Below are positions 1-25,583 of a stretch of DNA of 32,000 nucleotides, one piece after another. A program made the translations under genes and the position numbers. Under the pieces are notes generated by a model, which saw nothing but the letters and a program-made list of their open reading frames with translations, had not been told where the DNA came from and did no database searches. This DNA comes from Halomicronema hongdechloris C2206. GTDB taxonomy: Bacteria > Cyanobacteriota > Cyanobacteriia > Phormidesmidales > Phormidesmidaceae. The stretch is taken from contig NZ_CP021983.2 in assembly GCF_002075285.3 (NCBI RefSeq), forward strand, positions 2,670,001 to 2,702,000, in the 5' to 3' direction. Positions within the stretch are counted from its first letter, which is position 1, and every line of letters begins with the position of its first letter.

Positions 1-1
1 T

Positions 2-4333: not shown

Positions 4334-5257
4334 ATGTTTATTTCAGTCGTCATATGCACGCTCAATCGAGCTGACTATCTCAGGAAAGCAATCAAAAGCT
4401 TAACTAGTCAGACATTTAACGCTGCTCAGTTTGAAATTATTGTCGTTGATAATAACTCTACTGATAATACTCGATCTGTCGCCAAAGACGAGTTCGGTGG
4501 TATTAATAATATTCGATATCTATTTGAACCAGTAATGGGACTCTCGCAAGCCCGTAACACTGGTTGGCAAAATTCTAGAGGTGACTTTATTGCTTTTCTC
4601 GATGATGATGCCATTGCTGCACCACAATGGCTTGAAATAATCGCACAGGTATTTGCGTCTGTTACTCCTATGCCGGGGTGTGTAGGTGGTAAGGTCAAAC
4701 CACTCTGGGAATCGCCAAGGCCCAGCTGGTTATCAGATTCCCTATTATCCTGTCTATCACTTATTGACTATGCCGATTATCCCACTTTTCTAGAAGATGG
4801 CTTTGTCGTTGGCGCTAATATGGCGTTTCCCAAGAAAGTACTCCAAGAACTCGATGGTTTTAGCACCATGTTGGGGAGAAAAGGCAAAAGTCTTCTCTCG
4901 AATGAAGAGATCCTCCTTAGAAATCAACTTAAGAGTGCAGGCTACAAAATTTTCTACCATCCTGAAGCAAGTGTCATCCACCAAATTCCTGCATCTCGAC
5001 TAGAGCAATCATGGTTCCTGAAGCGTTACTATTTTCAAGGTGTATCAGACGCTTATATGATGCTCTATAAAAATAACTTGAGTTCACTGAGACGCCTGAA
5101 TTTGGTTCGCAGAAAAACTAAGTCACTACTTAACTTATCGGATAAATTGGTTCCTCTTTTTCTTCGCTCTGAAGATGCCAATACTTTTTACAAAAAATGT
5201 CAAGCCCGTCGAGATATCGGATATATTGCCGCATTGGCAGGACTTTCTAAGACTTAG
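4334..5257 (+). CDS. glycosyltransferase family 2
   Basis: The canonical GT2 N-terminus ISVVICTLNRADYLRKAIKSLTSQTF..FEIIVVDNNSTDNT is followed by FLDDDA (DxD). Confidence 0.85.
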   Translation: MFISVVICTLNRADYLRKAIKSLTSQTFNAAQFEIIVVDNNSTDNTRSVAKDEFGGINNIRYLFEPVMGLSQARNTGWQNSRGDFIAFLDDDAIAAPQWLEIIAQVFASVTPMPGCVGGKVKPLWESPRPSWLSDSLLSCLSLIDYADYPTFLEDGFVVGANMAFPKKVLQELDGFSTMLGRKGKSLLSNEEILLRNQLKSAGYKIFYHPEASVIHQIPASRLEQSWFLKRYYFQGVSDAYMMLYKNNLSSLRRLNLVRRKTKSLLNLSDKLVPLFLRSEDANTFYKKCQARRDIGYIAALAGLSKT

Positions 5258-5312
5258 CTCTATGTTTGCTTTATAAAACAAATCTATCTGGCGACTAATT
5301 ATTGTGAAATCC

Positions 5313-6407: not shown

Positions 6408-6486
6408 ATTTATTGCTCATAAAGTTTCAGCTTTTGAGACTTCTGTTGACTAGGAGATTTAAGTGGACTTGAACTGGAAAATGGAT

Positions 6487-7617: not shown

Positions 7618-7995
7618 TCTGAAATAAAGTTGCTAATGACTATCAAACTTTCCTGATGAGCACTGTCATTCTAGAAGAGATAACTGAAATTTTAACTGCC
7701 ATGGTAATCATGGCGATTAGTTACTGGCTTACAAACGCCAGGTACCAACCACAAACGCCTTAAATCATTACCTACATTGACCCTCTGTTCTCAGCAATTG
7801 GTTCCTGCTTTACCATAGCCACTGTTAATGATCTTCATTCAGTTAGCAAAGGATCAGGAAACTATTTTTGAATAATCATCGTCTCAGATAAAAGTGCAGA
7901 TCAGGTAGACATTGTGCATCCCTATTCCCTAAATTAAAGCCACACAATTGCCCCTTGCATCGCTAGGTAGTGCTCAACCCAATTTGCTCCTTACC

Positions 7996-8997
7996 ATGCA
8001 CTCAATAGGCGTTGTCACCATTGGCCGCAACGAAGGAGAACGACTGATTCGTGGCCTTAAATCCCTAACAAAATACCTACCCTCTGACACCCCCATTGTC
8101 TATGTCGATTCTGGCTCTACTGACGGAAGTATCGCCGCTGCCCAAGCCTTAGGTATCCACGCCATCGAGTTAGACATGTCAGTTCCTTTCACCATGGCCC
8201 GGGGGCGCAATGCAGGCTTTCAATACCTGATAGATCAGTTTCCTGAGCTCACCTATGTGCAATTCATGGATGGTGACTGTGAGCTATTGCCTAACTGGAT
8301 TGAACCAGCAAAAGCTGCCCTAGACCAAGCCCCTGATCTGGCCATCGTTTGTGGTCGTCGGCGGGAGCGCTTCCCCGAGGCTTCCCCCTACAACCGGCTG
8401 GCCGACATGGAATGGAACACCCCCGTCGGTGAAGCCAAAGCCTGTGGGGGCGATATGTTGGCTCGTGTTGCCGCCATTAAAGACGTTGGTGGCTACACCC
8501 CCACCCTGATCTGTGGCGAAGAACCCGAAATGTGCATTCGCCTACGCCAGCAGGGGTGGCGCATTCGCCGCATCGATGCCGATATGACCCTGCACGATGC
8601 CGCCATGACCCACTTTAGCCAGTGGTGGAAGCGTTCTATCCGGGCGGGTTGGGCCATTGCCGAAGGGAAAGCCATGCATGGAGCCCCCCCTGAAAACTAC
8701 ATGGTGAAAGAATCCCGCAGTGGCTGGTTGTGGGGGTTCATTATTCCAGGTTTAGCCATCGGCCTCAGTTGGCCCACCCGGGGCATCAGCGTAACGCTAC
8801 TGCTGGGCTATGGCGTACTTATGGGGCGTATCTACCAATATCGCAGGCAACAGCATGATCTCCCTGAGCATGCCTGGTTATATGCCCGTTTCTGCACGTT
8901 ATCTAAGCTGCCTCAATGTATTGGTCAGGCACGATATTGGCTAACTCGCCTGCGTCGCCAACAGGCAACTCTTATCGAGTATAAGACCACCTTCTGA
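7996..8997 (+). CDS. glycosyltransferase family 2 with C-terminal membrane segment
   Basis: MHSIGVVTIGRNEGERLIRGLKSL...VYVDSGSTDGS...QFMDGDCEL shows the GT2 signature and DxD. A hydrophobic stretch (WLWGFIIPGLAIGLSW..) lies near the C-terminus. The ORF track offers a TTG start at 7948; the ATG at 7996 fits the family N-terminus better. Confidence 0.8.
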   Translation: MHSIGVVTIGRNEGERLIRGLKSLTKYLPSDTPIVYVDSGSTDGSIAAAQALGIHAIELDMSVPFTMARGRNAGFQYLIDQFPELTYVQFMDGDCELLPNWIEPAKAALDQAPDLAIVCGRRRERFPEASPYNRLADMEWNTPVGEAKACGGDMLARVAAIKDVGGYTPTLICGEEPEMCIRLRQQGWRIRRIDADMTLHDAAMTHFSQWWKRSIRAGWAIAEGKAMHGAPPENYMVKESRSGWLWGFIIPGLAIGLSWPTRGISVTLLLGYGVLMGRIYQYRRQQHDLPEHAWLYARFCTLSKLPQCIGQARYWLTRLRRQQATLIEYKTTF

Positions 8998-8998
8998 C
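8990..8998. repeat. target-site duplication, left copy (CCTTCTGAC)
   Basis: The identical 9-mer occurs at 10299-10307, directly outside the two inverted repeats of the IS. It contains the TGA stop (8995-8997) of the GT2 gene. Confidence 0.65.
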
Positions 8999-10298
8999 CT
9001 GACTGCCTGACACATCTTTTACTCTAGTCGGCAGGATAGAGAGCGGATGCGAGAGAACCAGATTTGGTCGTAATAGTCGTGCTCCGCTTTTTTGGAGGCA
9101 AAACAAGGCTCTGGGTCACGGACTAACAGCGCTATCGGCTCTAGAAGCTGTCGTCCTTTGTGAACGACTCCCTTAAGCCAGCGCAATCCAATCTTGAGGT
9201 AGCTGAGTCCGCGCCGCCAATGAGGGTCTACCTGCTGCCTAAGGCCTTCAATCTGAACCGCCATGCCAGTGGTTGTTCCATAAAGCAGTGCAATAGCGGC
9301 CACTAGATAAAGTCGCTCAAGGGCTACCGCTGAGCGGATTCGGGAGTCTTCAATCTCGAAAGCTCCTGATTTGCTATCCAAAAACAGCTCCTCTACTCTG
9401 AAACGCAACGCGTAGCGCCAGAGCGTCTGCAAGGTAGGCGGTTCATCGGTGATGACGGCCCAAGGCTCTTTGACGCCTTTAAGCGTCGCCAGCACGATGT
9501 TGCACTGGTGGGAGCCATCCTGCCACAGCCTGACATTTCGATAGAAAATCGCCTCGCCTTTTGGCGGCCACAGATATCTCACTTCAGTCGGATAACGCCT
9601 TGGCCCGTGCAGCAGGACATCGCAGGGCACTCGCAAGCAGTAGTGCCAACTGCTCGCTTGCAACCAACTCATCAAGTCGTGGTTGGCAAAGCCTCGGTCG
9701 GCCAGCAGCATTAGGTTCGGGTACTGCCTCAAAAGCCACCGGGCACGGCGCAGCAAAGGGCGGTATTCTTCAAAAGCCACCGTTGCACTGCCATGCTCAA
9801 GCACTCGCCACAGTAGCGGGACTGCTCGTCCGCAGCACACCACTGACAGGTGAATCATGCAGTATTGGTTCCACAGCACCGTTGTATCGAGTGCCAGATA
9901 CAGCCGCTTGCCCTCCCACTGCCTCAGCGTCAGCAGCACCAGCGGTAGGTAGAGCTGATTTATCTCAACGAGCCGGTTGCCGAAAAATCGATGCCACCGC
10001 CGCTCGAAGCTTTGCGCTTTGTTGGCACGGCTTATCACGTAGGACTCCCAAGCAGGTGGGCTCAGCTCACCACTACAAATCAGGGCGGTGACCATCCAAG
10101 ATAGGGCTTTGATATGGCGCAAGTCCCGGTAGTGGCTGTATTGACGCAGATAGTGCAGCAGTTGATCATAGAGCTGGGTAGAGCTTGGCATGTCGCTTTG
10201 GCCGTCAGTGTGGTAACTACAGCCTCGCACACGAGCTCTGCCTATTTCCTCTTTGTCCTGATATGACTACCTTTCAGCTACTTCTGTCAGGCACTCAG
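8999..10298 (-). mobile_element. IS4-family insertion sequence (~1.3 kb, single transposase)
   Basis: Terminal inverted repeats are CTGACTGCCTGACA (8999-9012) and the reverse complement of TGTCAGGCACTCAG (10285-10298), matching at 13 of 14 positions. The element is flanked by 9-bp direct repeats and encodes a DDE transposase with a YREK signature. Confidence 0.8.
9019..10191 (-). CDS. IS4-family DDE transposase
   Basis: The motifs LALDTT, LLADRGF and YALRFRVEELFLDSK fit D, D and Y-x2-R-x3-E-x6-K exactly. The likely start is the ATG at 10191 (MPSSTQLYDQLL...) rather than the upstream GTG at 10230. Confidence 0.85.
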   Translation of the reverse strand: MPSSTQLYDQLLHYLRQYSHYRDLRHIKALSWMVTALICSGELSPPAWESYVISRANKAQSFERRWHRFFGNRLVEINQLYLPLVLLTLRQWEGKRLYLALDTTVLWNQYCMIHLSVVCCGRAVPLLWRVLEHGSATVAFEEYRPLLRRARWLLRQYPNLMLLADRGFANHDLMSWLQASSWHYCLRVPCDVLLHGPRRYPTEVRYLWPPKGEAIFYRNVRLWQDGSHQCNIVLATLKGVKEPWAVITDEPPTLQTLWRYALRFRVEELFLDSKSGAFEIEDSRIRSAVALERLYLVAAIALLYGTTTGMAVQIEGLRQQVDPHWRRGLSYLKIGLRWLKGVVHKGRQLLEPIALLVRDPEPCFASKKAEHDYYDQIWFSRIRSLSCRLE

Positions 10299-10307
10299 CC
10301 TTCTGAC
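10299..10307. repeat. target-site duplication, right copy (CCTTCTGAC)
   Basis: Identical to 8990-8998 and abuts the right inverted repeat. Confidence 0.65.
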
Positions 10308-10341
10308 ACCATTTCCTGCGTCGTTTGCTTGGAACATTTTC

Positions 10342-10728
10342 ATGTCAGCGCCGGTTGTTAAGTCTATAAAGCACTCAATGCCTCGATACCCGGTCTTGGA
10401 TGGCTGGCGAGGTATTAGCATCCTCTGTGTGTTAGCCTCTCACATGCTGCCGCTTGGTCCTGCCGCTTGGGATTTGAACCTAGCAGCAGGGTATCTGGGC
10501 ATGTCCTTATTTTTTACATTGTCGGGCTTTTTAATTACAACAAGCCTGATTTTTAGATTAGACCTATATGAATTCGCTATCCGGCGAGTGATTAGGGTTG
10601 TTCCCCTTGCTTGGCTTTATGTGGCTGTTGTTTTATCGTTGCAATTGCCCAGCTTCTCTACTGCCGTAGCGCATCTTTTGTTCTACGCTAATTTACCTCC
10701 ATCTTCTACTATGAAAAACCTTTTATAG
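10342..10728 (+). pseudogene. acyltransferase family 3 (OafA/YrhL-like O-acyltransferase), 3'-truncated
   Basis: The N-terminus RYPVLDGWRGISILCVLASHM...FFTLSGFLIT...RRVIRVVPLAW matches the Acyl_transf_3 start. It stops after 128 aa, whereas family members are typically ~350 aa or more with about 10 TM helices. Confidence 0.65.
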
Positions 10729-10822
10729 TCTGGGGAAAACGGTGGATTATATAGAGCCAGGGAAAGTTTATTCCCTCAAAAAATTAGAGACATAAAAACA
10801 TGATTGATTTTGGAAACAAAAA

Positions 10823-12115
10823 ATGATGGGAAATAAAAAGCTGAGAATTCTATTAATCATCGAGCAGTGTAATCCTGAGTGGACATCAGTTCCGCTGCAA
10901 GGCTATTATTTCTATATCAGTATTAGAAATTTATTTAATACAACTCTGGTCACTCACGAGAGAAATAAACCAGCACTAGAAAAAGTACATTCAGATAGAG
11001 ATATTGTTTATATTTATGAGAGTAATTTTACTAAGTGGTACTATAAACATGCAGAATCTTTAAGCAAAATAAAAGGCAAAATAATTTGGCCTCTCTACAA
11101 TACACTAACCTATCCAATTTATGCTGAATTCAACCATCTAGTCTACAAAAAGTTTAAAACTTCTGTTCTTAAAAGAGACTATGACATTGTCCATGTCGTC
11201 ACACCAATGATGCCGCGCTATCCGGCCAAGATTATCAAAGCTTGCAAAAATATTCCCTTTATAATTGGGCCAGTAAACGGTGGTGTGCCCTATCCAAAAG
11301 GATTTCAAGAGATCGCTCGAAAAGAGTTTGCTGGCTTTAACTTCTTGCGGTTAATTGGCCGATGGCTTATTCCTGGCTACCGTGAGACCTACGAAGAGGC
11401 TGATTATATCCTCGCTGGCTCAACTTATACACTAAATTTAATCAAAAGCCTATTCGACGTTAGAGATGAACACATAGAACTATTCTATGAAAATGGAATC
11501 AATGACGCCTTCTTTAGTAAAGATCCCAAAGTCGACACTGAAGAGAGTATACAGATAAACCTTCTCTTTGTCGGTCGTCTCGTACCTTATAAAGGAGCTG
11601 ATATATTAATAGACTCAATTGGTCAACTAAGACCGCAGATCCAAGAAAATATATCTTTAATTATTGTTGGTAATGGCTCTGAGAAAGAGTCTTTACAGCA
11701 GCAAGTGCAAAATCTCGATCTAAAAGAAAAAATCCACTTTCCAGGCTGGGTAAATCAGCAAGAAATACTCGAGTATTACCATAAATCCGATATCTTTTGT
11801 TTCCCTTCAGTTAGAGAGTTTGGAGGTGCCGTAGTCATAGAGGCTATGGCTAATGGACTTCCATGCATCGTTGTTGACAATGGTGGTATTGGAGAATATG
11901 TCACCGAAGAAACCGGATTTAAAATTAATCCGATTTCCAGAGAGTTTGTCGTGCAGGAGCTAAGAAAACGAATTGAGCAATTGGTAGAAGATAGGGCCTT
12001 ACATGCTGCAATGTCATACGAGGCAGTTGAACGGGCAAAAGAGTTTACTTGGGACTCCAAAGCCGAGAAAATATCAGACATTTACTTGAAATTATTAAGT
12101 AATTCGAGTGAATAA
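10823..12115 (+). CDS. glycosyltransferase family 4 (group 1)
   Basis: LLFVGRLVPYKGADILIDS...FPSVREFGGAVVIEAMANGLPCIVVDNGGIGEYV is the canonical GT4 E-x7-E region. Confidence 0.85.
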   Translation: MMGNKKLRILLIIEQCNPEWTSVPLQGYYFYISIRNLFNTTLVTHERNKPALEKVHSDRDIVYIYESNFTKWYYKHAESLSKIKGKIIWPLYNTLTYPIYAEFNHLVYKKFKTSVLKRDYDIVHVVTPMMPRYPAKIIKACKNIPFIIGPVNGGVPYPKGFQEIARKEFAGFNFLRLIGRWLIPGYRETYEEADYILAGSTYTLNLIKSLFDVRDEHIELFYENGINDAFFSKDPKVDTEESIQINLLFVGRLVPYKGADILIDSIGQLRPQIQENISLIIVGNGSEKESLQQQVQNLDLKEKIHFPGWVNQQEILEYYHKSDIFCFPSVREFGGAVVIEAMANGLPCIVVDNGGIGEYVTEETGFKINPISREFVVQELRKRIEQLVEDRALHAAMSYEAVERAKEFTWDSKAEKISDIYLKLLSNSSE

Positions 12116-12153
12116 TCATAACCGATCCTCAAAGTTATTTGAGATTTAAAGAG

Positions 12154-13350
12154 ATGAATTTGACCTTAGGATACTTTGTTCCCGAATTTCCCAGCCAGAC
12201 CCATGCATTTTTCTGGCGAGAAGTGAATGCATTGCGCGAACAAGGCATTAGTGTCCAATTATTCTCTAGCCGTCGCCCGCCGGATACAGCGTGTTATCAT
12301 CCATTTGCGGATACAGCACGTCAGCAAACTTACTATGTCTTCCCACCCAATATCATAAAGGTTCTATCTTTTGCGTTCTCACATCCCCATAAGTTATGGT
12401 GGGGAATTTCGTATATCGTAAATCTACCTGAAATATCTTATTTGCAACGAGTAAAGCTAATGAGCTTACTCGCTTGTGCCATAGAATTAGTAGCCCATTG
12501 TCGAAACCTAGACATCAATCATGTCCACTTTCATTCTTGTGCAAATTCTGCCCATATTGGTGCGATCGCAAATATCATCTCTGAAATTTCGTATAGTTTA
12601 ACTTTGCATGGTGATCTGACAATCTACGGAACTCATCATCCCCAGAAAATGATGCGAGCCGAACTGGTCACCGCAGTAACTACACCACTAAAAAAGCAAA
12701 TACTTGATGCGACCTCAATGACCGAAGATCGTGTGCCAATCATCCATATGGGCGTTGATGTTGATTACTTCCAACCTAAAACCCGTCAAAAAGATACATC
12801 AACAGAACTGCATGTGGTTACGGTCGCTCGGTTGAATCGAGTTAAGGGACATGTCTATATGTTAGAAGCCCTATCAAAACTGCAAGAAGAAGGCCACAAC
12901 ATCAAGTATTCTATCGCAGGCGAAGGGACATATCGTCCAGAGATAGAAAAGAGAATTAAGGAATTGAAACTAGTAGATTCAGTAGTAATGCTAGGTTCCA
13001 TTGGAGAAGATGATGTTCTTCGGCTTCTACAATCGGCAGATATTTTTGCACTCACTAGTACTGGACGTGGTGAAGCAGCACCAGTCTCGGTCATGGAAGC
13101 TATGGCCTGTGGTCTACCCACCATATGCTCTATTATCGGAGGGACACCAGACATGATTGAGCATAGAAAGGATGGATTTCTACTCAATCAAAAAGACATT
13201 CCTGCCATAACCAATACCCTACGAGAATTAATACTTTCTCCCGAGTTGCGATATCAAATTGGCAAAGCTGCCAGACAGAAGGCAGTTCATCGCTATGACT
13301 ATCGGGTCACAGCAAAACAGCTAAGTGAGGCTATATTGAAATTTAAATAG
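12154..13350 (+). CDS. glycosyltransferase family 4 (WcaL-like)
   Basis: MNLTLGYFVPEFPSQTHAFFWREV is a WcaL-type N-terminus, and VTVARLNRVKGH...GEAAPVSVMEAMACGLPTICSIIGGTPDMI is the GT4 region. The ORF track start at TTG 12139 is probably too early. Confidence 0.85.
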   Translation: MNLTLGYFVPEFPSQTHAFFWREVNALREQGISVQLFSSRRPPDTACYHPFADTARQQTYYVFPPNIIKVLSFAFSHPHKLWWGISYIVNLPEISYLQRVKLMSLLACAIELVAHCRNLDINHVHFHSCANSAHIGAIANIISEISYSLTLHGDLTIYGTHHPQKMMRAELVTAVTTPLKKQILDATSMTEDRVPIIHMGVDVDYFQPKTRQKDTSTELHVVTVARLNRVKGHVYMLEALSKLQEEGHNIKYSIAGEGTYRPEIEKRIKELKLVDSVVMLGSIGEDDVLRLLQSADIFALTSTGRGEAAPVSVMEAMACGLPTICSIIGGTPDMIEHRKDGFLLNQKDIPAITNTLRELILSPELRYQIGKAARQKAVHRYDYRVTAKQLSEAILKFK

Positions 13351-13407
13351 TCACTATAGATATTAAAAATCTTTTCCAAAACATGTCTTTTGAATTTATG
13401 AGGATCC

Positions 13408-14145
13408 ATGAATTATCCATATCGTCACATACCAATAGTTTCTCCTGCGTACCGAAACCTGAGGAGATTTGTGAATAGCAGACGCTACGCCGGAAACAAT
13501 GTCTGGTGTCCTGTTTGCTCACGGTCCTTCAAGTCTTGGTTAAATAATCAGAGTCATGGCTCATGTCCTTACTGCCGCTCTGAAACTCGTCACCGAATAA
13601 CTTGCTTGTATCTGCAAAATCGATACAGTAATACTCAACTACCGATAAAGCTTCTTTATTTTGCTCCACACTGGGGACTAGAGCGATGGCTCCGTAAACA
13701 AAAACGTACGTTTTCCTGCACCACAACTGACCTGTCAGCACCCAATGTAGATGTTCATGCTGACATAACTAACTTGCCGTTTAAGAGTCAGTCATTTGAC
13801 CTGATTGTGTGTTGTCATGTTTTAGAACATATTCCTAATGATGAAAAAGCCATTAGTGAGTTGTTTCGAGTGTTACACAACGATGGAACCGCATTGATAC
13901 AGGTTCCATGTAATTATTCTGCTGAATATACAGACGAAGATCTATCCATCACAGATGCCCATGAGCGGGAAAAACGCTTTGGCCAGTTTGATCATGTCAG
14001 ACTCTATGGCCAAGATATTGTGAAACGACTGAAACTGCCAGGGTTCAAAGTGGAAATCTTTCGTCCTACACGGAACTACACAAGGCAAGAAAATGAACGT
14101 TTAGGGCTATGGGATGACGCTATTTTTGTCTGTCGCAAAGGTTAG
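13408..14145 (+). CDS. class I SAM-dependent methyltransferase with N-terminal Cys4 zinc-ribbon-like motif
   Basis: CPVCSRSF...CPYCRSETRHR is followed by FDLIVCCHVLEHIPNDEKAISELFRVLHNDGTALIQVP, which is Methyltransf_11-like. Confidence 0.8.
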   Translation: MNYPYRHIPIVSPAYRNLRRFVNSRRYAGNNVWCPVCSRSFKSWLNNQSHGSCPYCRSETRHRITCLYLQNRYSNTQLPIKLLYFAPHWGLERWLRKQKRTFSCTTTDLSAPNVDVHADITNLPFKSQSFDLIVCCHVLEHIPNDEKAISELFRVLHNDGTALIQVPCNYSAEYTDEDLSITDAHEREKRFGQFDHVRLYGQDIVKRLKLPGFKVEIFRPTRNYTRQENERLGLWDDAIFVCRKG

Positions 14146-14303
14146 AATACCTATTAGTCCTCTTTAGGAAATTTGGGTGTCCAAAAAGAATGCTTATACA
14201 ATGTTAGTTACAGCGATGCAGAAAATTCCTGAAAGCCCTGAAGTGCAAGAATTCTCAGAGTGCATCCTAGTTTTCTGACATTACGGTTAATAATGGAGGC
14301 ATA

Positions 14304-15020
14304 ATGGCAACATTAAGTAGTTTTTTCGATCGCATTTATATTTTAAACCTTCCCCATCGCGTTGATCGACGCAAAGCCACCATCAAGGAGTTGGAGTCAA
14401 TAGGAGTATTTTTGAAACCTGAAAAGATTGAAGTCTTTCCGGCTATCAAGCCTGACAAGGCAGAACCTTTCAAGAAATTGGGATCTAAAGGTTGTTTCCT
14501 GAGTGTGTTAGCTATCCTCGGGCATGTAAGAGATGAAGGTGCTAACAACGTCTTGATTTTTCAGGATGACATTAAATTCCCCCCATTTTTCAACAAACAT
14601 GAGAGTTCTTTAATACAGCAGCTTGAGCTCCAGAACTGGGATATTGCTCAGTTCGGTCATCTTACCACCGAAATAGATGATGCAGATATCAAGGATAAAT
14701 TTGCCACCTGGAGAGACTCTGAAAGTAAAGCTATAGGTGCACATTTCTTTGCCGTCAATGGCAAATCCCTCGATCGATTCATTCATTTTCTTGAAGAGCT
14801 TATGAGTCGCCCGAGTGGACATCCTGAGGGGGGAGCCATGCCCATAGACGGAGCATTTACTGTATTTCGTCGTCAGAATCCTGACATAGTTAGATTACTG
14901 GCTATACCTAGCTTTGGGGGGCAAAGAAGTTCACGCAGCGATGTTACTCCTAAGTGGTTCGATAAGCTACCAGTAACATCAAACTTGGCTCAACTATATC
15001 GGCACTGGATTTATCATTAG
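14304..15020 (+). CDS. glycosyltransferase family 25-like
   Basis: The N-terminus FDRIYILNLPHRVDRRKATIKELESIG matches the GT25 (LOS/LPS galactosyltransferase family) start motif. A GGAGG Shine-Dalgarno sequence lies just upstream. Confidence 0.6.
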   Translation: MATLSSFFDRIYILNLPHRVDRRKATIKELESIGVFLKPEKIEVFPAIKPDKAEPFKKLGSKGCFLSVLAILGHVRDEGANNVLIFQDDIKFPPFFNKHESSLIQQLELQNWDIAQFGHLTTEIDDADIKDKFATWRDSESKAIGAHFFAVNGKSLDRFIHFLEELMSRPSGHPEGGAMPIDGAFTVFRRQNPDIVRLLAIPSFGGQRSSRSDVTPKWFDKLPVTSNLAQLYRHWIYH

Positions 15021-15517: not shown

Positions 15518-17725
15518 ATGAATACCATCCCACGCACGTATTACGTTTCCCCTAATGGTAACAATAATAACCCAGGTACAGAAGCCCAGCCTTGGAAAGA
15601 CATTCGCTATGCCACCAGTCAAGAGTCACCTGTGCAAGCAGGCGATACCATTTTGGTTCAGTCAGGCACTTATACAGAGACGATTACTTTAGAAAAGTCC
15701 GGTAGTAATCAGCAAGGGCATATCACCCTGAAGGCTAATGACAACGTTATTCTCCGCGACCCCCAACCCAACCAGGGTGGGTTCCGGGAAGGGGTGATCC
15801 AGTCTGCCGGAAAAGGTTATTGGGTCATCGATGGGTTCCGCATCGAAAATACCTCCTGGGCTGGCATTGCCCTCAGGGATGCCAATAACATGGTTGTGCA
15901 AAATAACCATACCGACAATACGGGAGCCTCGGGCATTATCGTCATGCCGGATAAATTCTTCGGCGGTGGCGAAGCCGAGGTTACCAGCTCGGATATCAAA
16001 ATTCTCAACAATATCGTGGAGCGGGCCAACTGGAAATGGCAAACTGCCAACGATACTGGCGCACCTCAAGAAGCACTAACAATTTGGGGGGTTGATGGCT
16101 TCGAAGTCGCAGGAAATCTAGTTAGAGATACCAAGAAAGAAGGCATCGATATCAAAACCGGCTCCAGAAATGGCTCAGTTCATGACAATCGGGTGACTAG
16201 AACCGCGTTGATTTCAGGAACCCCTGCAGGGTATCGAGGCGGCCCTGCTATCTACGTAGACGGCAATCGGGCAGATACGTTCAATATCGCTATCTACAAC
16301 AATGTCGTTCATAACAACACCTCCAGCGGCATCGTAATCGCCGATGAAGTAGTCGGCGTGGGTGATGTTGCCGATATTCGGGTTTACAACAATGTCATTT
16401 ATGACAACGGTCGACTCGGAATTAATGCGGGGGCAGGCATTAGTGTCCGCCATAACGTGGAAGACGTGAATATCATCAACAATACCCTTTCTGGCAATGT
16501 GCAAGCCTTCCTTGTTGATGGGGCTTCTGCCTCAGGAAATCCCAAGCTTGAGGATGTTCTCATCCGCAACAATATCTTCGCAGACAGCGTCTTTCGTAAT
16601 GGCTTCATCGGTGCCGCCGAGGACATTACCATCGACAATAACCTGTTTACCAATGACTTTGATGTCCTATACCAGCTCGGGACCGTCACCGATCTGCATG
16701 ACAGTGCCAATGATGTGGTCGCCTCGGTTGGCTTTGTTGATGCCCAGAACCAGGACTTTCGACTGAGCGCCTCATCTGCAGCCGTCGATAGTGGTTCTAA
16801 CCAGATTGGCAACTATGCTCAAACGGACTTCAATGGTGTTCTACGGCCCAATGGAGCCGGGGTTGACCAGGGAGCCTATGAGTTTTTGCCGCACAATAAG
16901 AGCACCACTATTGGCGAGTACGACACCTTAGATCTCAACCACCAGTGGCAGACAATCCTGCTGGATGAGTCCTATATTAATCCCGTTGTCATCGTCTCCG
17001 ACCCCACCCTGAATGGCTCAGATCCTGCTGCCATTCGCCTCCGCAAGGTCACCCAAGACTCCTTTCAAATCCGGCTGCAAGAGCCTAACTATAAAGACGG
17101 TAAGCATATTAACGAATCTGTTTCGTATCTGGTCATAGAAGCCGGAGATTGGACCCTTGCGGATGGCACTCGCATCTCCGCTGGCCAGCATCAATCTGAT
17201 CGGTTAACTTCCAAAGGCTTCGACGCCATCGACCTGACAGGCTTCGACAGCACCCCGGCGGTGTTATCTCAAGTGCAGACCTTCAACGGCAGCGACTGGG
17301 TAACTACTCGCACTACCGGACAATCTGCCAACGGGTTCCAACTGGCCATGCAGGAAGAAGAGGCCCGCAATAATGGTGGCCATGTGGATGAAACCATTGG
17401 CTGGCTAGCAGTCTCCCAGGGGGTGGCATCTGATGGCGATACTCTGCTACAGGGAAATACAACTGGGCGAAATTACGATCACAATCAGGCTACCGTTAAC
17501 TTTGACGCAGACTTCAATACAGCCCCATCAGTGTTGGCTAAACTAGGCTCTTACTTTGGGCCAGATACCGCTAATCTGCGCTTAGATGACATCACCGCCA
17601 ACGGCTTTAGCCTAGGGGTATATGAGGAGCAATCTTTGAACCAGGAACTCCTTCATACCCAAGAATCAGTTTCCTTTTTGGCTCTAGAAGGACCAGCTGG
17701 CGTCTTAACCGGATTGCCATTTTAG
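15518..17725 (+). CDS. right-handed parallel beta-helix (PbH1/CASH repeat) protein with three C-terminal tandem modules; polysaccharide lyase/hydrolase/epimerase-like
   Basis: The DUF1565-type N-terminus YYVSPNGNNNNPGTEAQPWKDIRYA is followed by about 9 repeats of the form xxIxNNxIxDNxxxGI. The helix cap is FVDAQNQDFRLSASSAAVDSG...VDQGAYEF. Three ~65-70-aa repeats follow. An in-frame TAA at 15491 rules out an N-terminal extension. Confidence 0.8.
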   Translation: MNTIPRTYYVSPNGNNNNPGTEAQPWKDIRYATSQESPVQAGDTILVQSGTYTETITLEKSGSNQQGHITLKANDNVILRDPQPNQGGFREGVIQSAGKGYWVIDGFRIENTSWAGIALRDANNMVVQNNHTDNTGASGIIVMPDKFFGGGEAEVTSSDIKILNNIVERANWKWQTANDTGAPQEALTIWGVDGFEVAGNLVRDTKKEGIDIKTGSRNGSVHDNRVTRTALISGTPAGYRGGPAIYVDGNRADTFNIAIYNNVVHNNTSSGIVIADEVVGVGDVADIRVYNNVIYDNGRLGINAGAGISVRHNVEDVNIINNTLSGNVQAFLVDGASASGNPKLEDVLIRNNIFADSVFRNGFIGAAEDITIDNNLFTNDFDVLYQLGTVTDLHDSANDVVASVGFVDAQNQDFRLSASSAAVDSGSNQIGNYAQTDFNGVLRPNGAGVDQGAYEFLPHNKSTTIGEYDTLDLNHQWQTILLDESYINPVVIVSDPTLNGSDPAAIRLRKVTQDSFQIRLQEPNYKDGKHINESVSYLVIEAGDWTLADGTRISAGQHQSDRLTSKGFDAIDLTGFDSTPAVLSQVQTFNGSDWVTTRTTGQSANGFQLAMQEEEARNNGGHVDETIGWLAVSQGVASDGDTLLQGNTTGRNYDHNQATVNFDADFNTAPSVLAKLGSYFGPDTANLRLDDITANGFSLGVYEEQSLNQELLHTQESVSFLALEGPAGVLTGLPF

Positions 17726-17830
17726 GGGGGACTTCGTTCGATATCACAGTCTAAAAATCGGCACTTTGCGTTGGCCAACGCGTCAGAGTCTCTAGGGTAT
17801 CTACCAGTACGACTTCTCTGTACTGCTCCT

Positions 17831-17836
17831 AAGGAG
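17831..17836 (+). promoter_or_regulatory. Shine-Dalgarno sequence (AAGGAG) of the poly-Asp gene
   Basis: AAGGAG lies 10 nt upstream of the ATG at 17847. Confidence 0.5.
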
Positions 17837-17846
17837 ATTACACCCG

Positions 17847-18191
17847 ATGAAGACATCCCTAAGTCTAGGCCTTCTAACGTTGCTGTTGAGCGTTCCCTTG
17901 CAAATTGGGTTTGCTCCCTGGGCCTATGCCCAGATCGAAAGTGATGATGATGGCATCGAAATCGAAGATACCGATGACGATGACGACGACGACATCGATG
18001 ACGATGACGATGACGATGATGATGACGATGACATTGGTAATGACGACGATGACGATGTTGGCGAGTTCGATGACGACGATGTTACGGTTCCCAGCGATCC
18101 AGCCAATGTCCCCGAACCCATGACCATCCTCGGTAGCATGGCTGCCCTGGGCATGGGCTATGCGGCCAAGCGCAAACTGTCAGATAAGTAA
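17847..18191 (+). CDS. secreted poly-aspartate protein with PEP-CTERM sorting signal
   Basis: The signal peptide is MKTSLSLGLLTLLLSVPLQIGFAPWAYA. The core has 33 Asp and 4 Glu in 59 residues, with D7 and D12 runs. The C-terminus VPEP-MTILGSMAALGMGYAA-KRK is the PEP motif, a TM helix and a basic cluster. A strong RBS is present. Confidence 0.75.
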   Translation: MKTSLSLGLLTLLLSVPLQIGFAPWAYAQIESDDDGIEIEDTDDDDDDDIDDDDDDDDDDDDIGNDDDDDVGEFDDDDVTVPSDPANVPEPMTILGSMAALGMGYAAKRKLSDK

Positions 18192-18341
18192 TCCCTGATT
18201 CCGGACATGCCTACTGCCCCATTTTGGGGCTGACGGCCTGCGCGGATACCTTTCCCACCAATCAGGTGCCGATCACAGAGGTCGCCTTTGGCATCTGATT
18301 CGGCAGAGAGAGGACGTTATGATCCCGTCTCGATGACATCG

Positions 18342-18368
18342 CCCCCCTCGCCCGAGGGGGGATTTTTT
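18342..18368 (+). terminator. Rho-independent terminator
   Basis: The stem is CCCCCCTC (18342-18349) paired with GAGGGGGG (18354-18361), with loop GCCC, followed by A + TTTTTT (18363-18368). The opposite strand has no T-tract. Confidence 0.6.
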
Positions 18369-18579
18369 ATCGACCTCGACCCCCTCCATCCCCTGACTCT
18401 GTTCTCCTCCGGGGGCGGAAGGGGAACAGCGGTTTGAGGTTCCAACTGTAGGAAAGCTGAGATGAGTTGTCTAGCCATAGCAAGACACTTTTCTGGATTC
18501 GGGTGGCGCTACGCTTGCCCGGAACGACGAGACTCTTTTTCGGGGTGAATTGGCTATCTAAGAAAACCTCATGATCGTC

Positions 18580-18599
18580 ATTCCCGCGGCGGCGGGAAT
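18580..18599. repeat. small palindromic unit ATTCCCGC-GGCG-GCGGGAAT
   Basis: A perfect 8-bp stem with a 4-nt loop. On the minus strand it translates as LDSRRRGND, a motif I recognise from spurious ORFs over small palindromic repeats in other bacteria. A degenerate relative lies at about 18494-18530. Confidence 0.4.
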
Positions 18600-18793
18600 C
18601 CAGAGCGTCAGCCTCGGCACGGGCACAAAGCGCATAGTCTGCCAATAGCATAGCCCTCTACCTGGATGCCGAGTGGCGCATGGGTAGCCAAACGCTAGAC
18701 TAAATCTAGGCACCCCATGGCACCCGCATCAGGATTCTCGCGACCGGCAAATCCCTCCCCCCAACTAATCCGCCTCCTCCGCCCCAGGAAAGC

Positions 18794-19153
18794 TTGCCGA
18801 CCATGTATGATTTGCCCAGCGAGAATCCTGAGGAACCGGGCTTGCCTGATGAATTTCATGAGTTTCAGCCTCAATTACTGCGGGAAACCTGCCGATCTCC
18901 CGAGGTTAGGGCCGAGGAGATGTTCATTGGCACAGACCTTAACCTCTATTACGACGGTCGCCATCCCTTCTGGTACAAGCGATCTGATTGGTTTTTGGTA
19001 ATAGGCATAGAACCAGCCCAGGATCAACACAGTCTGCGACTCAGTTATGTGATGTGGCAGGAGACGGTGGCCCCTTTTTTAGTGGTGGAGTTATTATCTC
19101 CAGGGACTGAGGCCTATGATCGAGGCGGGAAATTTGCGCTCTATCGTCGTTAA
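18794..19153 (+). pseudogene. Uma2-family (DUF820) endonuclease, 3'-truncated
   Basis: MYDLPSENPEEPGLPDEFHEFQPQLL...DLNLYYD...RLSYVMWQE...VVELLSPGTE is the typical cyanobacterial Uma2 N-terminal two-thirds. It ends at 119 aa, shortly after the catalytic-core ELLSPGTE, whereas family members are usually ~190-240 aa. Confidence 0.7.
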
Positions 19154-19187
19154 GACTGCGCTTAATCTTGTAGCTCAGGGGGCTCAC

Positions 19188-19304
19188 CCGGGGGAATTTC
19201 GCTTCCCCCGGACCCCTACGACCAGGGCGTTCCGCCGCCCTGGACCTGCGGAAGGGCATATCGATCAGTGGCGCTAGATCGCGTCGCATCGGCGGGGACG
19301 CGAT
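19188..19304. repeat. cluster of three GC-rich stem-loops
   Basis: Hairpin 1: CCGGGGGAA / TTCCCCCGG (19188-19211, loop TTTCGC). Hairpin 2: CCAGGGCG / CGCCCTGG (19222-19243, loop TTCCGC). Hairpin 3: ATCGCGTC / GACGCGAT (19278-19304, 11-nt loop). Confidence 0.45.
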
Positions 19305-21091: not shown

Positions 21092-23233
21092 TTAAATACG
21101 AATCGTGCCGCCGTCAAACAGGGGAATCGTCATCGAGAAGTTCTCGCCATAGGTGAGCTTTTGCTCCTCTAGGATGCCCAGGGCAATAGCCTCCCCGAGG
21201 CGAATTGACTCGATGTAGTCGGTGAAATAGTGGACGCCGGCCCAGTTGCGACCGATGGCAATATTAGCGGCCAACTTGTTCAGCTCTGCACCGACGGTTA
21301 AGGGGCGATCGAGGGTAACCGACTCTAGCTGAGCACCATCCACAGACGGCTGATAGCAGACAGGCAGCTCATAGCCGTGGTCGAAGAAGGCCTTGAGAAT
21401 GGTGACGCAGGCCCCGGCCACCGTACCGTGGCCAGCTCCATAGGCGGGGTGCATCGGCGATCCTTCCGGGAAGGCCATCGGTAACAGGTAGCTATTGGAG
21501 CCGGCACTGGCATCGCCAGAACGATCGCTATGCTGGTTCTGACGGCGGTTGTGGTCGGCAATCTCCTCTAGGAAGGACTCGCCGAAGCCGTTGACTAGGG
21601 GCTCCACTGGCATGAATTCCTGGCGGTCGCCGCTGGCATAGCGGTGGATTAATCCCCCAATGGCCTCCGGCCGGGCCCGGCGATGCACGTTGAACTTCTG
21701 GAACCGCACTGCCTTCAGGGCGCGGGTGGCCACTTCCGTCACTAGGGAGAGAATGTGGGGGCCACCGAAGTGGGCGAAGCCCTGTTGCTTGTCGATGTGA
21801 TCAGCCCGCTGGAAGGGAATGCCGGGATCGAAGGGCACGCCCAAGGACAGCATGATCAAGCAGGCATTGAGATAGGCCTCGTAGAGGGCGTCGTAGTGAA
21901 CGTAGGTGGCCAGGTCCCGAGGCGTAGCCATGAATCGGAATTTGGGGTCATCGGCATAGAGCTCTAGGCCGCGGAAGTCGGCGCCGTTCTGGACATCCAG
22001 CCAGGCTTCCCAGGTGGTCATGTAGTCCCGGTAGGGGGCGGCCACCCGCACCCGCTGGTCTGCCCGAATGGATCCGTACTGGATGTACCCATCGCTGATG
22101 GCCTGGGCATCGCCGAGGCCGGTATTGCCCACCAGCAGAAACTGGGACAGGTAAGGCCCCACCTCATCGCCGGGGGCAATGCCGCGAAAGACCGTTTGAC
22201 GGGTGAAGGGACTACGCAGGCGCGATTCTTCCTCGGGGCTCAGGGCCAGGGCATCGGGGGATTGAATCCAATCGGTGGCGTTGAGCCGATCGATGGCCTG
22301 CTGGATCTCTGGGGCGCTGTCGAATTTGGCAAAGGGAATATCCCGCAACAGGGCCATGGTATAGACTTCCACCATTTCGGCCAGGAGTTCTGGGCTATCG
22401 AGGGTGGGGGCCGGGGGCATGGTCACGGCCTGGGCGTCGGGTCCTTCCAGATCGAAGGTGTTGCCAGCCCCCGGCACTTTCCCAGGCCCGCACCGGTAAT
22501 TTCTCGCGTTGGGCCAGGTTAGACTTCCAATTGGGAAATTCGACGCCATCCCTGTCCGGAGGCCCAGGGGAGTGTCCTGGAAGTCGCGGGTATCGCCGGA
22601 ATCGATGCCCCGAACAAACCGCTGATAGGCATCGGCATCCGAGAGCAGGCCGCGGTCATCGTGGGGCAATCCCTTGGTGTAGTTAGCGATGTGGCTGGGT
22701 TGGTTATCGGTATCGCGATAGAGCAGCTCCTCGCCGTTGCTGAGGTGCTCAGGATGGGCGGGGCGCCTGGCCAGTTCGGCGGCCTGGCGCCGCACCTCGA
22801 GGGCTTGTAGTCTACGATCCCATAGTCTTGCTCCTGGTATGTTGGGGGGATTGAATAGACAGATAGCCGGTGGAGCGCCGTCGCCTCGAGCGCCGGGGGG
22901 GGAGAGCGCCAGAGAGGGGGCTCGCTCTACTGGGAGCACTACTGTCTGGTTGCGATCGCGGCTGTTCCACAGCACGCTGTCTGCGGTGCTCTTGATCAAC
23001 TGGTTGCCGTCAAATACTTTGAAATACAGATCGGGCAACCGATCAAACCATATGAAGTCTCGGAACGAGGTGTCATCGAATTGCACCTGAAAGGCACCCT
23101 GAGCATCGGTGGTGGCCTGGGCTAGAAAATCATCGAAGATGAGGTCTTTGTCCCAGACTTCAACCCGTAGGCCTGATAAGCCGGCGCCAGTGGCTTGACT
23201 CACCACTCGCCCGGCAATGCGATAGAAGCTCAT
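21092..23233 (-). CDS. vanadium-dependent haloperoxidase-like protein (PAP2 superfamily) with N-terminal transthyretin-like domain
   Basis: The N-terminal ~90 aa (RIAGRVV...GLRVEVWDKDLIFDDFL..TTDAQGAFQV..PDLYFKVF) look like a carboxypeptidase-regulatory / transthyretin-like beta-sandwich. The C-terminal part carries KFNVHRRARP, HPAYGAGHG and GRNWAGVHYFTD, which correspond to the K..RP / xGH / R..H active-site motifs of the vanadate/phosphate-binding superfamily, and NYTKGLPHD typical of VHPOs. Confidence 0.7.
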   Translation of the reverse strand: MSFYRIAGRVVSQATGAGLSGLRVEVWDKDLIFDDFLAQATTDAQGAFQVQFDDTSFRDFIWFDRLPDLYFKVFDGNQLIKSTADSVLWNSRDRNQTVVLPVERAPSLALSPPGARGDGAPPAICLFNPPNIPGARLWDRRLQALEVRRQAAELARRPAHPEHLSNGEELLYRDTDNQPSHIANYTKGLPHDDRGLLSDADAYQRFVRGIDSGDTRDFQDTPLGLRTGMASNFPIGSLTWPNARNYRCGPGKVPGAGNTFDLEGPDAQAVTMPPAPTLDSPELLAEMVEVYTMALLRDIPFAKFDSAPEIQQAIDRLNATDWIQSPDALALSPEEESRLRSPFTRQTVFRGIAPGDEVGPYLSQFLLVGNTGLGDAQAISDGYIQYGSIRADQRVRVAAPYRDYMTTWEAWLDVQNGADFRGLELYADDPKFRFMATPRDLATYVHYDALYEAYLNACLIMLSLGVPFDPGIPFQRADHIDKQQGFAHFGGPHILSLVTEVATRALKAVRFQKFNVHRRARPEAIGGLIHRYASGDRQEFMPVEPLVNGFGESFLEEIADHNRRQNQHSDRSGDASAGSNSYLLPMAFPEGSPMHPAYGAGHGTVAGACVTILKAFFDHGYELPVCYQPSVDGAQLESVTLDRPLTVGAELNKLAANIAIGRNWAGVHYFTDYIESIRLGEAIALGILEEQKLTYGENFSMTIPLFDGGTIRI

Positions 23234-23333: not shown

Positions 23334-25583
23334 CTATGCAGCCGCGATCACTCTGAGTTGCTGCTCCCGTCGCAGCAGGCTATCACACAGCAACCGAGCC
23401 AAATAGGTCTGCACCGCGTGGGCCAGTTCCGGCGCTTCTTGCTGCATGGCGTCGAAGGCGCTCCGTTCCAAATAGTAGAGGCTGGTGGGCAAATCGGTCA
23501 CCACCGCCGTGGATAGGGGCGGCTTGCCATAGAAGCGCATTTCCCCCAGCACATGGCCCTGGGTATGGGTCTCCAACCGGCGAGTGTGTCCGTCCGGCAG
23601 CTCCAGTAGCACACTCACCTGCCCCGACTCGATGAAATAGAGGCGATCGCTGTTTTCCTGGGTGAAGAGGACATGGCCAGCGTCCACTGGGTCATGTTTC
23701 AGATACGCCATGAATTGCGGGATGCGATCGCGGCTGAGAAATAGTTCTTCCAGCTGGGTTTCGATGGGGGCGGGTGGGTTCATGGAAGGGGGCCTCCAGC
23801 AGCAGTTGGTTCTCACACCACTCCAGCCCCCGATCCAAATCGGCAAAGATCTGGCAGCAGTCTTCATCCACCAAGCCATCTCCCCCTGACGCAGTTGCCC
23901 CTCCACCGCTGGAGTGAGGCCAGTGTAGACCACCGTGAGCTGCCGTTGACGAGCGATCTTGAGAATTTTCATGAAGCTGAGCACCCCGGAGGCATCCAGG
24001 CCGTCCACCTGGCCAAAGCTAATCACGATCCAACTGGGAGCTGGCTTATCCTCAGCCTCCAACCGTTGCCGCACCTGATCTAGCACGTAATTGGCGGTGC
24101 CAAAGAAGACATAGCCACGCAACTCTAAGATAAAAATCTGCTCCCCCCGATCTTGCAGCCATTGCCGTTGCCGCGGCGAGCGTCGCACATTGCTAAAGGT
24201 GGTTGCCCCCGAGGTCACCTGCTTGGCCACATCCAAATAGCTGTAATCCACCATGAACAGGATCACCGCCAGCACAAACCCCAAGACCACCCCCTGGAGA
24301 AACCCCAGGGCATTGATGGCCACCAGCATGATGATGACGATGGCGTAATCGCGCCAGGACAACTTAAACCAGGCCCGGTAGATCCATTGAATCAACAACG
24401 ACAGGCCCAGATAGAGCAATAGCGCCCCTAGCACTGGTTTGGGGAAATAGGCCAGAAACGACGCCCCCAGCTGTAAGACCACGAAACAGACGATCGCACA
24501 GACAATGCCAGACAGGCGATTACAGGCATTGATCTTGTAGACCAATAGGGTACTGGGCAAGGCTTGATTGCCGGCCATGCCAGTGGTGATGCCCGAGGCC
24601 AGATTGGCCATGCCCACCGACTCCAGTTCCGTATCCAAATCCAGGTCTCGCCCCACCACCAGCTCAATGCCACTGTTGCTGAGCATCAGCGACAGTAAAC
24701 TGACCACGGCTACAGACCCCACCAAGCCCCAATGGTCCAGCACCGCCGGCCACTGCACCTGGGAGAGGCTACTCAGGGTCAAGGGATGCCACAGTCCCCC
24801 CTCGGGAAAGGGCCCCAATAGCCAGCCCGCCTGCCGCGCTTCAGTAGGAGATACCTGGACCACCCAGAGGGCGGCATAAAAGACGCCGATGGAGGCCAAC
24901 AGAGCCGCCGGCATCACCAGAAAATGCTGATACCGCCAAGACAACAGCATCAATCCCAGGGCAAAGGCCAGGGCGCAACCCCAATGGCTTAGGAATGCCG
25001 GGGTCAGCAACTGCGGTAGCGTGTCCAGGCTGAGAGCAAAGTCCGCCGTCACTTGAATCGACCCATCCACCAGCAGCCAACCGGTACCGGCCATGAATCC
25101 CCCCACCACCGGGTAGGGGATGAAGCGGATCTTGCGCCCCAACTGGAACCGCCCCAGCAGCCAGAGCACCGCCCCGGTGACTAAAGAACTCACCGCTATG
25201 GCCGCCAGCACTGTTACCAGAATTACCTCAGAGGACACGGTACCCTGCAATTGCCGGGCAATTTGACCGGCCAACAGGGCCAAAATTGCGGTGGGAGCGG
25301 CCAAGGGTGTGGCGATCATCCCCGGTAGGGAACTGGCCAGGGCCACGACAATGCTGACGATGGCAGTGCTGAACACGGCCATGCCCACCCCCAGGGAAAG
25401 GTAGCCGGAGAGGGCTCCGGAAAAGATTAATGCGGCATAGGAGATGCCGCGGAAGACCCCAATCACACCGGTGACCAGCCCCGCCGTCAGGCTGGGAAAG
25501 AGGCGACTGGGTTGTAGTTCATCGAAGACAGGGGCTAGGGCGTGGGAGGGAGGAGAGTGTTCTAGGGTCACCGGTAGGGCCAC
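23334..25583 (-). CDS. SulP-family anion transporter fused to STAS and cyclic-nucleotide-binding domains
   Basis: There are about 11-12 hydrophobic segments with a SulP N-terminus (FRGISYAALIFSG). The STAS domain reads IFILELRGYVFFGTANYV...VDGLDASGV. The C-terminal CAP-like domain reads GHVLFTQENSDRLYFIESGQV...GHVLGEMRFY. The start is GTG. See the finding on an internal out-of-frame stretch. Confidence 0.85.
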   Translation of the reverse strand: MALPVTLEHSPPSHALAPVFDELQPSRLFPSLTAGLVTGVIGVFRGISYAALIFSGALSGYLSLGVGMAVFSTAIVSIVVALASSLPGMIATPLAAPTAILALLAGQIARQLQGTVSSEVILVTVLAAIAVSSLVTGAVLWLLGRFQLGRKIRFIPYPVVGGFMAGTGWLLVDGSIQVTADFALSLDTLPQLLTPAFLSHWGCALAFALGLMLLSWRYQHFLVMPAALLASIGVFYAALWVVQVSPTEARQAGWLLGPFPEGGLWHPLTLSSLSQVQWPAVLDHWGLVGSVAVVSLLSLMLSNSGIELVVGRDLDLDTELESVGMANLASGITTGMAGNQALPSTLLVYKINACNRLSGIVCAIVCFVVLQLGASFLAYFPKPVLGALLLYLGLSLLIQWIYRAWFKLSWRDYAIVIIMLVAINALGFLQGVVLGFVLAVILFMVDYSYLDVAKQVTSGATTFSNVRRSPRQRQWLQDRGEQIFILELRGYVFFGTANYVLDQVRQRLEAEDKPAPSWIVISFGQVDGLDASGVLSFMKILKIARQRQLTVVYTGLTPAVEGQLRQGEMAWWMKTAARSLPIWIGGWSGVRTNCCWRPPSMNPPAPIETQLEELFLSRDRIPQFMAYLKHDPVDAGHVLFTQENSDRLYFIESGQVSVLLELPDGHTRRLETHTQGHVLGEMRFYGKPPLSTAVVTDLPTSLYYLERSAFDAMQQEAPELAHAVQTYLARLLCDSLLRREQQLRVIAAA

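Follow-up and report, generated by a model that had tools for sequence, protein, structure and literature searches.

A small poly-aspartate protein with a cyanobacterial PEP-CTERM tag, encoded beside a sulfotransferase and glycosyltransferase island in Halomicronema hongdechloris C2206

A short open reading frame on the chromosome of Halomicronema hongdechloris C2206 (2,687,847-2,688,191) would encode a protein in which Asp makes up 53% of everything between an apparent signal peptide and an apparent sorting tag, and it raises two questions: whether such a sequence is a gene at all and, if so, what its product might do outside the cell. Here we report an analysis of the 32,000-nucleotide stretch of DNA that contains it (contig NZ_CP021983.2, positions 2,670,001 to 2,702,000; the window, whose coordinates are used below unless the chromosome is named). 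We conclude that the ORF specifies a precursor of 114 residues in three parts, a Sec signal, a disordered polyanionic core and a cyanobacterial-type PEP-CTERM tag, and that this PEP-CTERM substrate with its near-pure poly-aspartate cargo is an unusual load for a known export system. The product reads, part by part, MKTSLSLGLLTLLLSVPLQIGFAPWAYA, QIESDDDGIEIEDTDDDDDDDIDDDDDDDDDDDDIGNDDDDDVGEFDDDDVTVPSDPAN and VPEPMTILGSMAALGMGYAAKRKLSDK. A preliminary description of this DNA had listed the ORF, its Shine-Dalgarno sequence, signal peptide, Asp and Glu counts and tail, and all of them were found where it had placed them. The features that matter for the argument are these:

15518-17725, + strand: XM38_025320, a beta-helix protein of 735 aa, polysaccharide-lyase-like, with a lectin-like C-terminal part
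17831-17836, + strand: Shine-Dalgarno sequence AAGGAG, read directly, 10 nt 5' of the small-ORF ATG
17847-18191, + strand: small poly-Asp ORF, ATG at 17847, stop at 18189-18191, 114 aa
17847-17930, + strand: Sec-type signal peptide, residues 1-28, MKTSLSLGLLTLLLSVPLQIGFAPWAYA, predicted cleavage between AYA and Q
17931-18107, + strand: polyanionic core, residues 29-87, from a composition count, predicted disordered
17972-18081, + strand: imperfect GAT/GAC (CGATGA hexanucleotide) array encoding the Asp runs, from TRF
18108-18188, + strand: PEP-CTERM sorting tag, residues 88-114, comprising VPEP, the helix MTILGSMAALGMGYAA, KRK and LSDK
18342-18371, + strand: intrinsic terminator, CCCCCCTCGCCCGAGGGGGG then a T-run, from a terminator scan and inverted repeat I1

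The case for a gene was built on comparison with a single relative. A word-indexed search of ~5.8 billion protein clusters returned one homologue of the small protein, the 89-aa P0001, whose source is two Namib Desert salt-pan metagenomes (loci L001 and L002). Because the P0001 gene directly follows, on its 3' side, the gene for a 735-aa beta-helix protein with 90% identity, free of gaps, to that of the window, the small-gene loci are orthologous. The coding lengths of the two small genes differ by 75 nt, or 25 codons, leaving the frame intact. Nei-Gojobori comparison of the window gene with that of P0001 gave an omega of 0.08 for the signal peptide and 0.075 for the tag, in which 24 of the 27 residues are identical and 9 synonymous changes stand against 3 non-synonymous ones, and the neighbouring beta-helix enzyme has an omega of 0.073 at a dS of 0.70. 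On these counts the signal peptide and tag are under purifying selection, with an omega the same as that of the neighbour. The block around the Shine-Dalgarno sequence, TAAGGAGAT(T/C)ACACCCGATG, is kept in both orthologous loci, and a G+C-rich hairpin followed by a T-run also lies 3' of the orthologue in L001 and L002; the corresponding predicted terminator at 18342-18371 is taken to end the transcription unit that holds the small ORF.

These observations bear directly on the reading that there is no gene here, merely a chance frame over a non-coding GAY microsatellite. The exact 114-aa product, like two alternative-start versions of it, has no match in a 15-billion-protein collection in which the products of neighbouring genes are present, a point in favour of that reading which has to be taken with the possibility that the collection filters low-complexity sequences; other frames are open as well, with poly-Ser and poly-Met/Thr ORFs overlapping the small one. 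Against it, the frame survives the 75-nt length difference, omega is ~0.08 in both flanks of the core, the Shine-Dalgarno sequence and terminator are conserved at the orthologous loci, and both orthologues exceed two independent curated HMM thresholds. The substitution pattern effectively refutes the non-coding reading, which we consider extremely improbable, and the small ORF is a genuine protein-coding gene of H. hongdechloris C2206. The antisense poly-Ser ORF and the poly-Met/Thr ORF in the +2 frame were each considered as the real gene and rejected, since conserved, selected flanks occur only in the Asp frame. Seven of eight other ORFs tested in 17722-19289 were absent from the same collection; the eighth, an antisense frame of 94 aa, is the annotated XM38_025340. 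A locus-tag slot, XM38_025330 (ASC71581), falls between the beta-helix gene and XM38_025340. As the core has neither Lys nor Arg, trypsin-based proteomics would miss the mature peptide.

Relatives are extremely few. An exhaustive phmmer search with P0001 against 1.84 billion representatives found, beyond the family, only unrelated proteins sharing the PEP-CTERM tail, so that the family has two members among those representatives. No relative was recovered when GTDB representative genomes were scanned with small-protein patterns, which were partly poly-Asp and for that reason poor, and a metagenome scan with a tag-only alignment gave a single match, an unrelated PEP-CTERM protein. A further genome scan, with GuaA, matched a filamentous cyanobacterium at 89-90% at best.

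Both ends of the protein carry recognisable sorting signals. The Sec-type signal peptide ending in AYA that had been proposed earlier has the expected layout in a heuristic n/h/c test, by which it was called: a basic n-region (K2), a hydrophobic h-region no shorter than 15 residues, in which the Kyte-Doolittle value over 15 residues reaches 1.97, and Ala at -3 and -1 of the predicted cleavage site, ahead of a Gln that is conserved, AYAQ being kept in the orthologue. The tag at the C-terminus is tripartite, with VPEP at 88-91, MTILGSMAALGMGYAA at 92-107 and KRK at 108-110, followed by four residues. The suggestion that this was a PEP-CTERM signal was borne out by profile searches, the tail scoring 41.4 bits against TIGR04155 (cyano_PEP; cutoff 21.6) and 19.4 bits against the general PEP-CTERM model TIGR02595 (cutoff 16); for P0001 the values were 37.9 and 18.9 bits. 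The Pfam model PF07589 (PEP-CTERM) was sub-threshold on the small protein (12.6 against 20.7). Profile searches found no exosortase gene within the 32-kb window, and no paper linking Halomicronema with exosortase was found in the literature. In Nostoc punctiforme, deletion of crtB (cyanoexosortase B) altered the levels of the PEP-CTERM exoproteome, mostly downwards (10.1101/2024.12.02.626408). The window holds one cyano_PEP gene and the Namib contig L001 holds two, side by side. The second of these (L001 3139-3759) encodes 206 aa, scores 38.9 bits against TIGR04155 and comes right after the small acidic gene; at the matching position in H. hongdechloris, 18191-18687, there is no second cyano_PEP gene and a short repeat element lies there instead, and a homology search with the second tagged protein matched no H. 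hongdechloris protein.

What lies between the two signals is far less constant. The core of the window protein, 59 residues, contains 33 Asp, 4 Glu and no Lys or Arg, with a net charge of about -37 and Asp in runs of 3, 7, 12, 5 and 4. AlphaFold predicts helices only at residues 7-19, in the signal peptide, and 94-112, in the C-terminal transmembrane segment, of the 114-aa protein (pTM 0.14), leaving the acidic core without secondary structure. The core of P0001 is shorter, 35 residues with 7 Asp, 7 Glu and one Arg. Core sequence has thus turned over completely between two orthologues whose flanks are nearly identical, and what is conserved, to go by this one comparison, is a short, strongly acidic, seemingly disordered linker interrupted here and there by hydrophobic residues, not poly-Asp itself.

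The Asp runs are encoded by a tandem array. TRF describes it as a period-6 repeat of CGATGA (10.2 copies, 85% matches) at 17972-18032 and as a period-30 repeat (3.7 copies) over 17972-18081; the tandem-repeat table of the genome paper lists a period of 6, 10 copies and CGATGA at chromosome positions 2687972-2688032 (PMC6416890), a match that fixes the window at 2,670,001-2,702,000 of the chromosome. The 19 GAT and 15 GAC codons of the small ORF are close in ratio to the 139:101 found in eight other window genes, the beta-helix gene and seven downstream. Locus comparison showed that the CGATGA array is absent from L001 and L002, and since the orthologue core has no long Asp runs, the poly-Asp is a lineage-specific, in-frame GATGAC expansion. 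It had been suggested beforehand that Asp length might vary in frame; the 25-codon difference between related genomes agrees with this, and the long Asp runs themselves are limited to C2206. A second Asp-coding repeat is listed at chromosome positions 5,255,385-5,255,537, with units such as GATGACGACGATGACCTAGGC giving a DDDDLG-type repeat (PMC6416890, supplementary file 1), which by its sequence suggests another Asp-rich repeat protein in the C2206 genome.

A fast-changing core of this kind could also be neutral cargo, with the gene real and exosortase-sorted, the core serving as a hydrophilic spacer or "brush" or as a carrier of modifications, and the Asp runs reflecting neutral slippage with no role in ion binding. 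The only orthologue lacks Asp runs and has a shorter, mixed core, the family is tiny, with two members, and the hexanucleotide array is still recognisable at 85% matches, which suggests recent expansion; moreover, fast-evolving, low-complexity cores are general in PEP-CTERM proteins, whose cargo is Ser/Thr-rich (10.1101/2023.01.19.524832). However, the core is strongly acidic with no more than one basic residue in both orthologues despite its turnover, which points to selection on charge. The cyanobacterial PEP-CTERM cores sampled here are also of a different kind: a regex scan of 1.4 Mb of mostly cyanobacterial loci, crude and small as a sample and in agreement with the literature on Ser/Thr-rich cargo, gave ten PEP-CTERM-like ORFs with cores of 3-10% Asp and 13-31% Ser plus Thr. 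Finally, ~60 residues that together carry a charge of -37 will take up divalent cations from a Ca/Mg-rich brine whether this is "intended" or not. We regard neutral cargo as a possible explanation, if on balance an unlikely one.

The surroundings of the gene give the acidic product a context. On its 5' side, window positions 14-15020 encode three sulfotransferases, about nine glycosyltransferases, a methyltransferase, a truncated acyltransferase and a DDE transposase; the sulfotransferase/glycosyltransferase island is mostly 31-45% G+C, and the window from ~18 kb on is 56-63% G+C. The preliminary description had set the small gene next to a glycan island, and domain searches agree, the gene directly following this island; the association with exopolysaccharide biosynthesis genes that marks PEP-CTERM systems is therefore found at this locus. 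Sulfotransferase-bearing polysaccharide clusters are typical of cyanobacterial sulfated exopolysaccharides (PMC8205485). The island (1-15020) also carries a GT25 gene and is interrupted by the DDE transposase (9019-10230, - strand), which lies in a stretch of 55% G+C, and likewise by a truncated Acyl_transf_3 ORF (10342-10728). From its gene content and composition it appears to be a cluster for a sulfated glycan, acquired by horizontal transfer and rearranged later.

Several further observations were made on the 3' side and across the window. XM38_025340 (ASC71582), annotated as a hypothetical protein of 94 aa at 18367-18651 (- strand), lies over the short repeat element, which occupies 18489-18622 and has two copies in the Namib contig L001 (4740-4836 and 5450-5586). 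The gene call is probably spurious, made on a mobile or repetitive element. A 713-aa protein at 21092-23233 (- strand) is named a putative vanadium-dependent bromoperoxidase in GenBank (ASC71588); searches against Pfam and NCBIfam gave it no significant family, only a weak N-terminal transthyretin-like match. A SulP-family sulfate permease with STAS and cyclic-nucleotide-binding domains is encoded at 23334-25583 (- strand), at most 6 kb from the sulfated-glycan island, and through this domain fusion the supply of sulfate may be tied to cNMP signalling. Scanning the window for Rfam families and for tRNAs gave no match.

The immediate upstream neighbour is 100% identical to XM38_025320 of C2206, and four further window proteins correspond exactly to C2206 accessions. 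XM38_025320 matches the Pfam Beta_helix family (75 bits) and the NCBIfam model choice_anch_Q, and its C-terminal part, which is poorly modelled, scores 23.7 bits against H_lectin, just under the cutoff of 24. AlphaFold predicts a right-handed beta-helix over residues 1-420, with pLDDT mostly >90. No match was found when its sequence was compared with PDB sequences, only the fold search being informative: the best Foldseek matches were the pectate lyase Pel9A, PL6 alginate/chondroitin lyases, GH136 lacto-N-biosidases, the epimerase AlgE4 and the Vibrio matrix lyase RbmB. As modelled, XM38_025320 has the fold of lyases and epimerases whose substrates are anionic polysaccharides. Proteins homologous to its N-terminal 460 residues occur widely among cyanobacteria and have swapped C-terminal modules, lectin-like in the window and in L001, and made of RTX repeats in Sphaerothrix and Almyronema; other homologues range from ~460 to >1000 aa, a spread in length that suggests further tail variants.

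This neighbour is the basis of another reading, in which the small protein is an accessory factor of the enzyme: a substrate mimic acting as inhibitor or immunity factor, a surface tether, or a supplier of Ca2+. Lyases of the PL9 and PL6 types are Ca2+-dependent. The two genes lie side by side on the same strand, separated by 121 nt in which the scan detected no terminator, and the pair is kept in the Namib relative; the enzyme resembles in its fold the Ca-dependent lyases that cleave anionic polysaccharides, and its sequence shows neither a signal peptide at the N-terminus nor an anchor. On the other hand, the enzyme is acidic throughout (pI 4.5, with a charge of about -22 on each half), which argues against simple electrostatic docking of the small polyanion, so that direct binding would need cation bridges. 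Furthermore, the small PEP-CTERM ORF is absent 3' of a full-length orthologue of 71% identity (L083) and of the RTX-tailed L084 and L085; it accompanies only the two closest versions of the beta-helix gene, those of the window and the Namib relative, and the small protein must therefore be dispensable for the enzyme and for cyanobacteria in general. We hold the accessory-factor reading to be very doubtful. The 121-nt spacer itself contains a perfect 14-bp palindrome, GCGTTGGCCAACGC, at 17768-17781; L001 and L002 conserve the blocks on either side of it and keep the palindrome itself only in part. Its role could be that of an operator or of a hairpin for RNA processing.

Both known hosts come from saline microbial mats rich in divalent cations: H. 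hongdechloris C2206 was isolated from a Shark Bay stromatolite (PMC6416890), and P0001 comes from Namib salt pans (10.1101/2022.02.18.481119). The best explanation of the locus, and one to which we give about an even chance of being right, is that the small gene encodes an exosortase-sorted polyanion that binds divalent cations and conditions a sulfated exopolysaccharide. The precursor would pass the inner membrane via Sec and be cleaved by signal peptidase after AYA, while the helix of its C-terminal tag, with the KRK facing the cytoplasm, would transiently retain it in the membrane; a cyanoexosortase would then cleave at or near VPEP, and a peptide of ~60 residues with a charge of about -37 would reach the cell surface or the exopolysaccharide layer. 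There, to judge from composition, the flexible polycarboxylate would bind Ca2+ and Mg2+ with high capacity and low affinity, and the cation-bound peptide might bridge or condition the exopolysaccharide that the adjacent island would produce. This polymer, anionic and probably sulfated, is probably remodelled by the co-inherited, lyase-like beta-helix enzyme encoded upstream. The Asp runs would represent the GATGAC expansion of an ancestrally acidic linker, with selection keeping the charge density of the core and not its sequence. Cation binding or matrix cross-linking by the small protein is plausible on compositional grounds; the roles put forward in the preliminary description, a Ca/Mg buffer, a mineralisation modulator or a cross-linker, stay hypothetical. 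Several points tell against this explanation: the sub-threshold Pfam score of the tag, the lack of poly-Asp runs in the sole orthologue, the two-member family, the missing small gene beside more distant orthologues of the partner enzyme, and the acidity of that enzyme. A more specific version, in which the exosortase plants the poly-Asp peptide in the sheath, where it sequesters Ca2+ and Mg2+ and determines both the site of carbonate nucleation and whether it occurs, with in-frame lengthening and shortening of the GATGAC repeat possibly tuning its capacity, we consider doubtful.

Environmental bacteria and cyanobacteria have many PEP-CTERM proteins, and a function is known for very few of them. 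In the present case the chemistry of the cargo is evident from the sequence (~60 residues carrying ~37 carboxylates), so that a synthetic peptide would allow its function to be tested directly. The capacity of mat matrices to hold Ca2+ and to delay or template carbonate has mostly been discussed as a property of bulk exopolysaccharide; a single small gene giving a defined polyanion offers a genetic handle on the question of Ca2+ and carbonate in mats. If the sheath-nucleation reading were true, the gene would make a bacterial equivalent, at the level of a gene, of the Aspein of molluscs. Absent from very large protein collections and invisible to trypsin-based proteomics, the product is also easily overlooked. 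A two-member family with a strain-specific poly-Asp tract may equally be a local curiosity.

Among known systems the closest are the PEP-CTERM substrates of cyanobacteria, such as ZepA (All3515), the hormogonium proteins of N. punctiforme and ScyD, ScyE and ScyF. The small protein shares with them an N-terminal Sec signal peptide, a VPEP, transmembrane helix and basic cluster that score above the curated cutoff of the cyanobacterial TIGR04155 class, and a gene position beside polysaccharide biosynthesis genes. ZepA of Anabaena is a metal-binding PEP-CTERM exoprotein (PMC10957091), and the cargo of the small protein is plausibly an exterior metal-ion binder too. In contrast to typical members, it is far smaller, at 114 aa, its homology to them is limited to the tag, and its cargo is an unfolded polyanion instead of a folded domain or a Ser/Thr-rich stretch. 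The preliminary description knew of no characterised bacterial PEP-CTERM protein of the poly-Asp type, and our literature search likewise found none. PepA of the floc-forming Zoogloea resiniphila is an exosortase-dependent, low-complexity surface protein thought to link cells and exopolysaccharide, as we propose here; however, proteins of the PepA type are rich in Ser, Thr and Asn and presumed to be glycosylated, whereas the small protein is a polycarboxylate that would act via cations and not via glycans.

In composition the small protein is more reminiscent of Aspein and Asprich, shell-matrix proteins of bivalves, in which a signal peptide is likewise followed by poly-Asp blocks with few other residues; these proteins too are intrinsically disordered, with an extracellular destination and a carbonate-precipitating setting. 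The Asp-rich domains of Aspein bind Ca2+, and their sequence is not conserved between species (PMC9496343). The bivalve proteins are nevertheless eukaryotic, non-homologous and much larger, and lack the C-terminal sorting tag that the small protein has; neither phmmer with P0001 nor the word-indexed search with the window protein detected homology to Aspein-like members. Calcium binding and polymorph control have been demonstrated for Aspein, and the likeness of the small protein is one of composition only, its one circumstantial tie to a mineral phase being the stromatolite from which the host came. A last parallel is found among homologues of the beta-helix partner, two of which, P0010 of Sphaerothrix gracilis and P0011 of Almyronema epifaneia, end in RTX repeats (GGxGxD, PF00353), an acidic Ca2+-binding module. 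RTX repeats are fused to the enzyme, fold upon binding Ca2+ and serve type I secretion, whereas the small protein is a separate, exosortase-tagged product with no RTX motif. With RTX tails on the partner's homologues and a small acidic protein beside the partner itself, the pairing of this enzyme with an acidic Ca-binding element therefore recurs.
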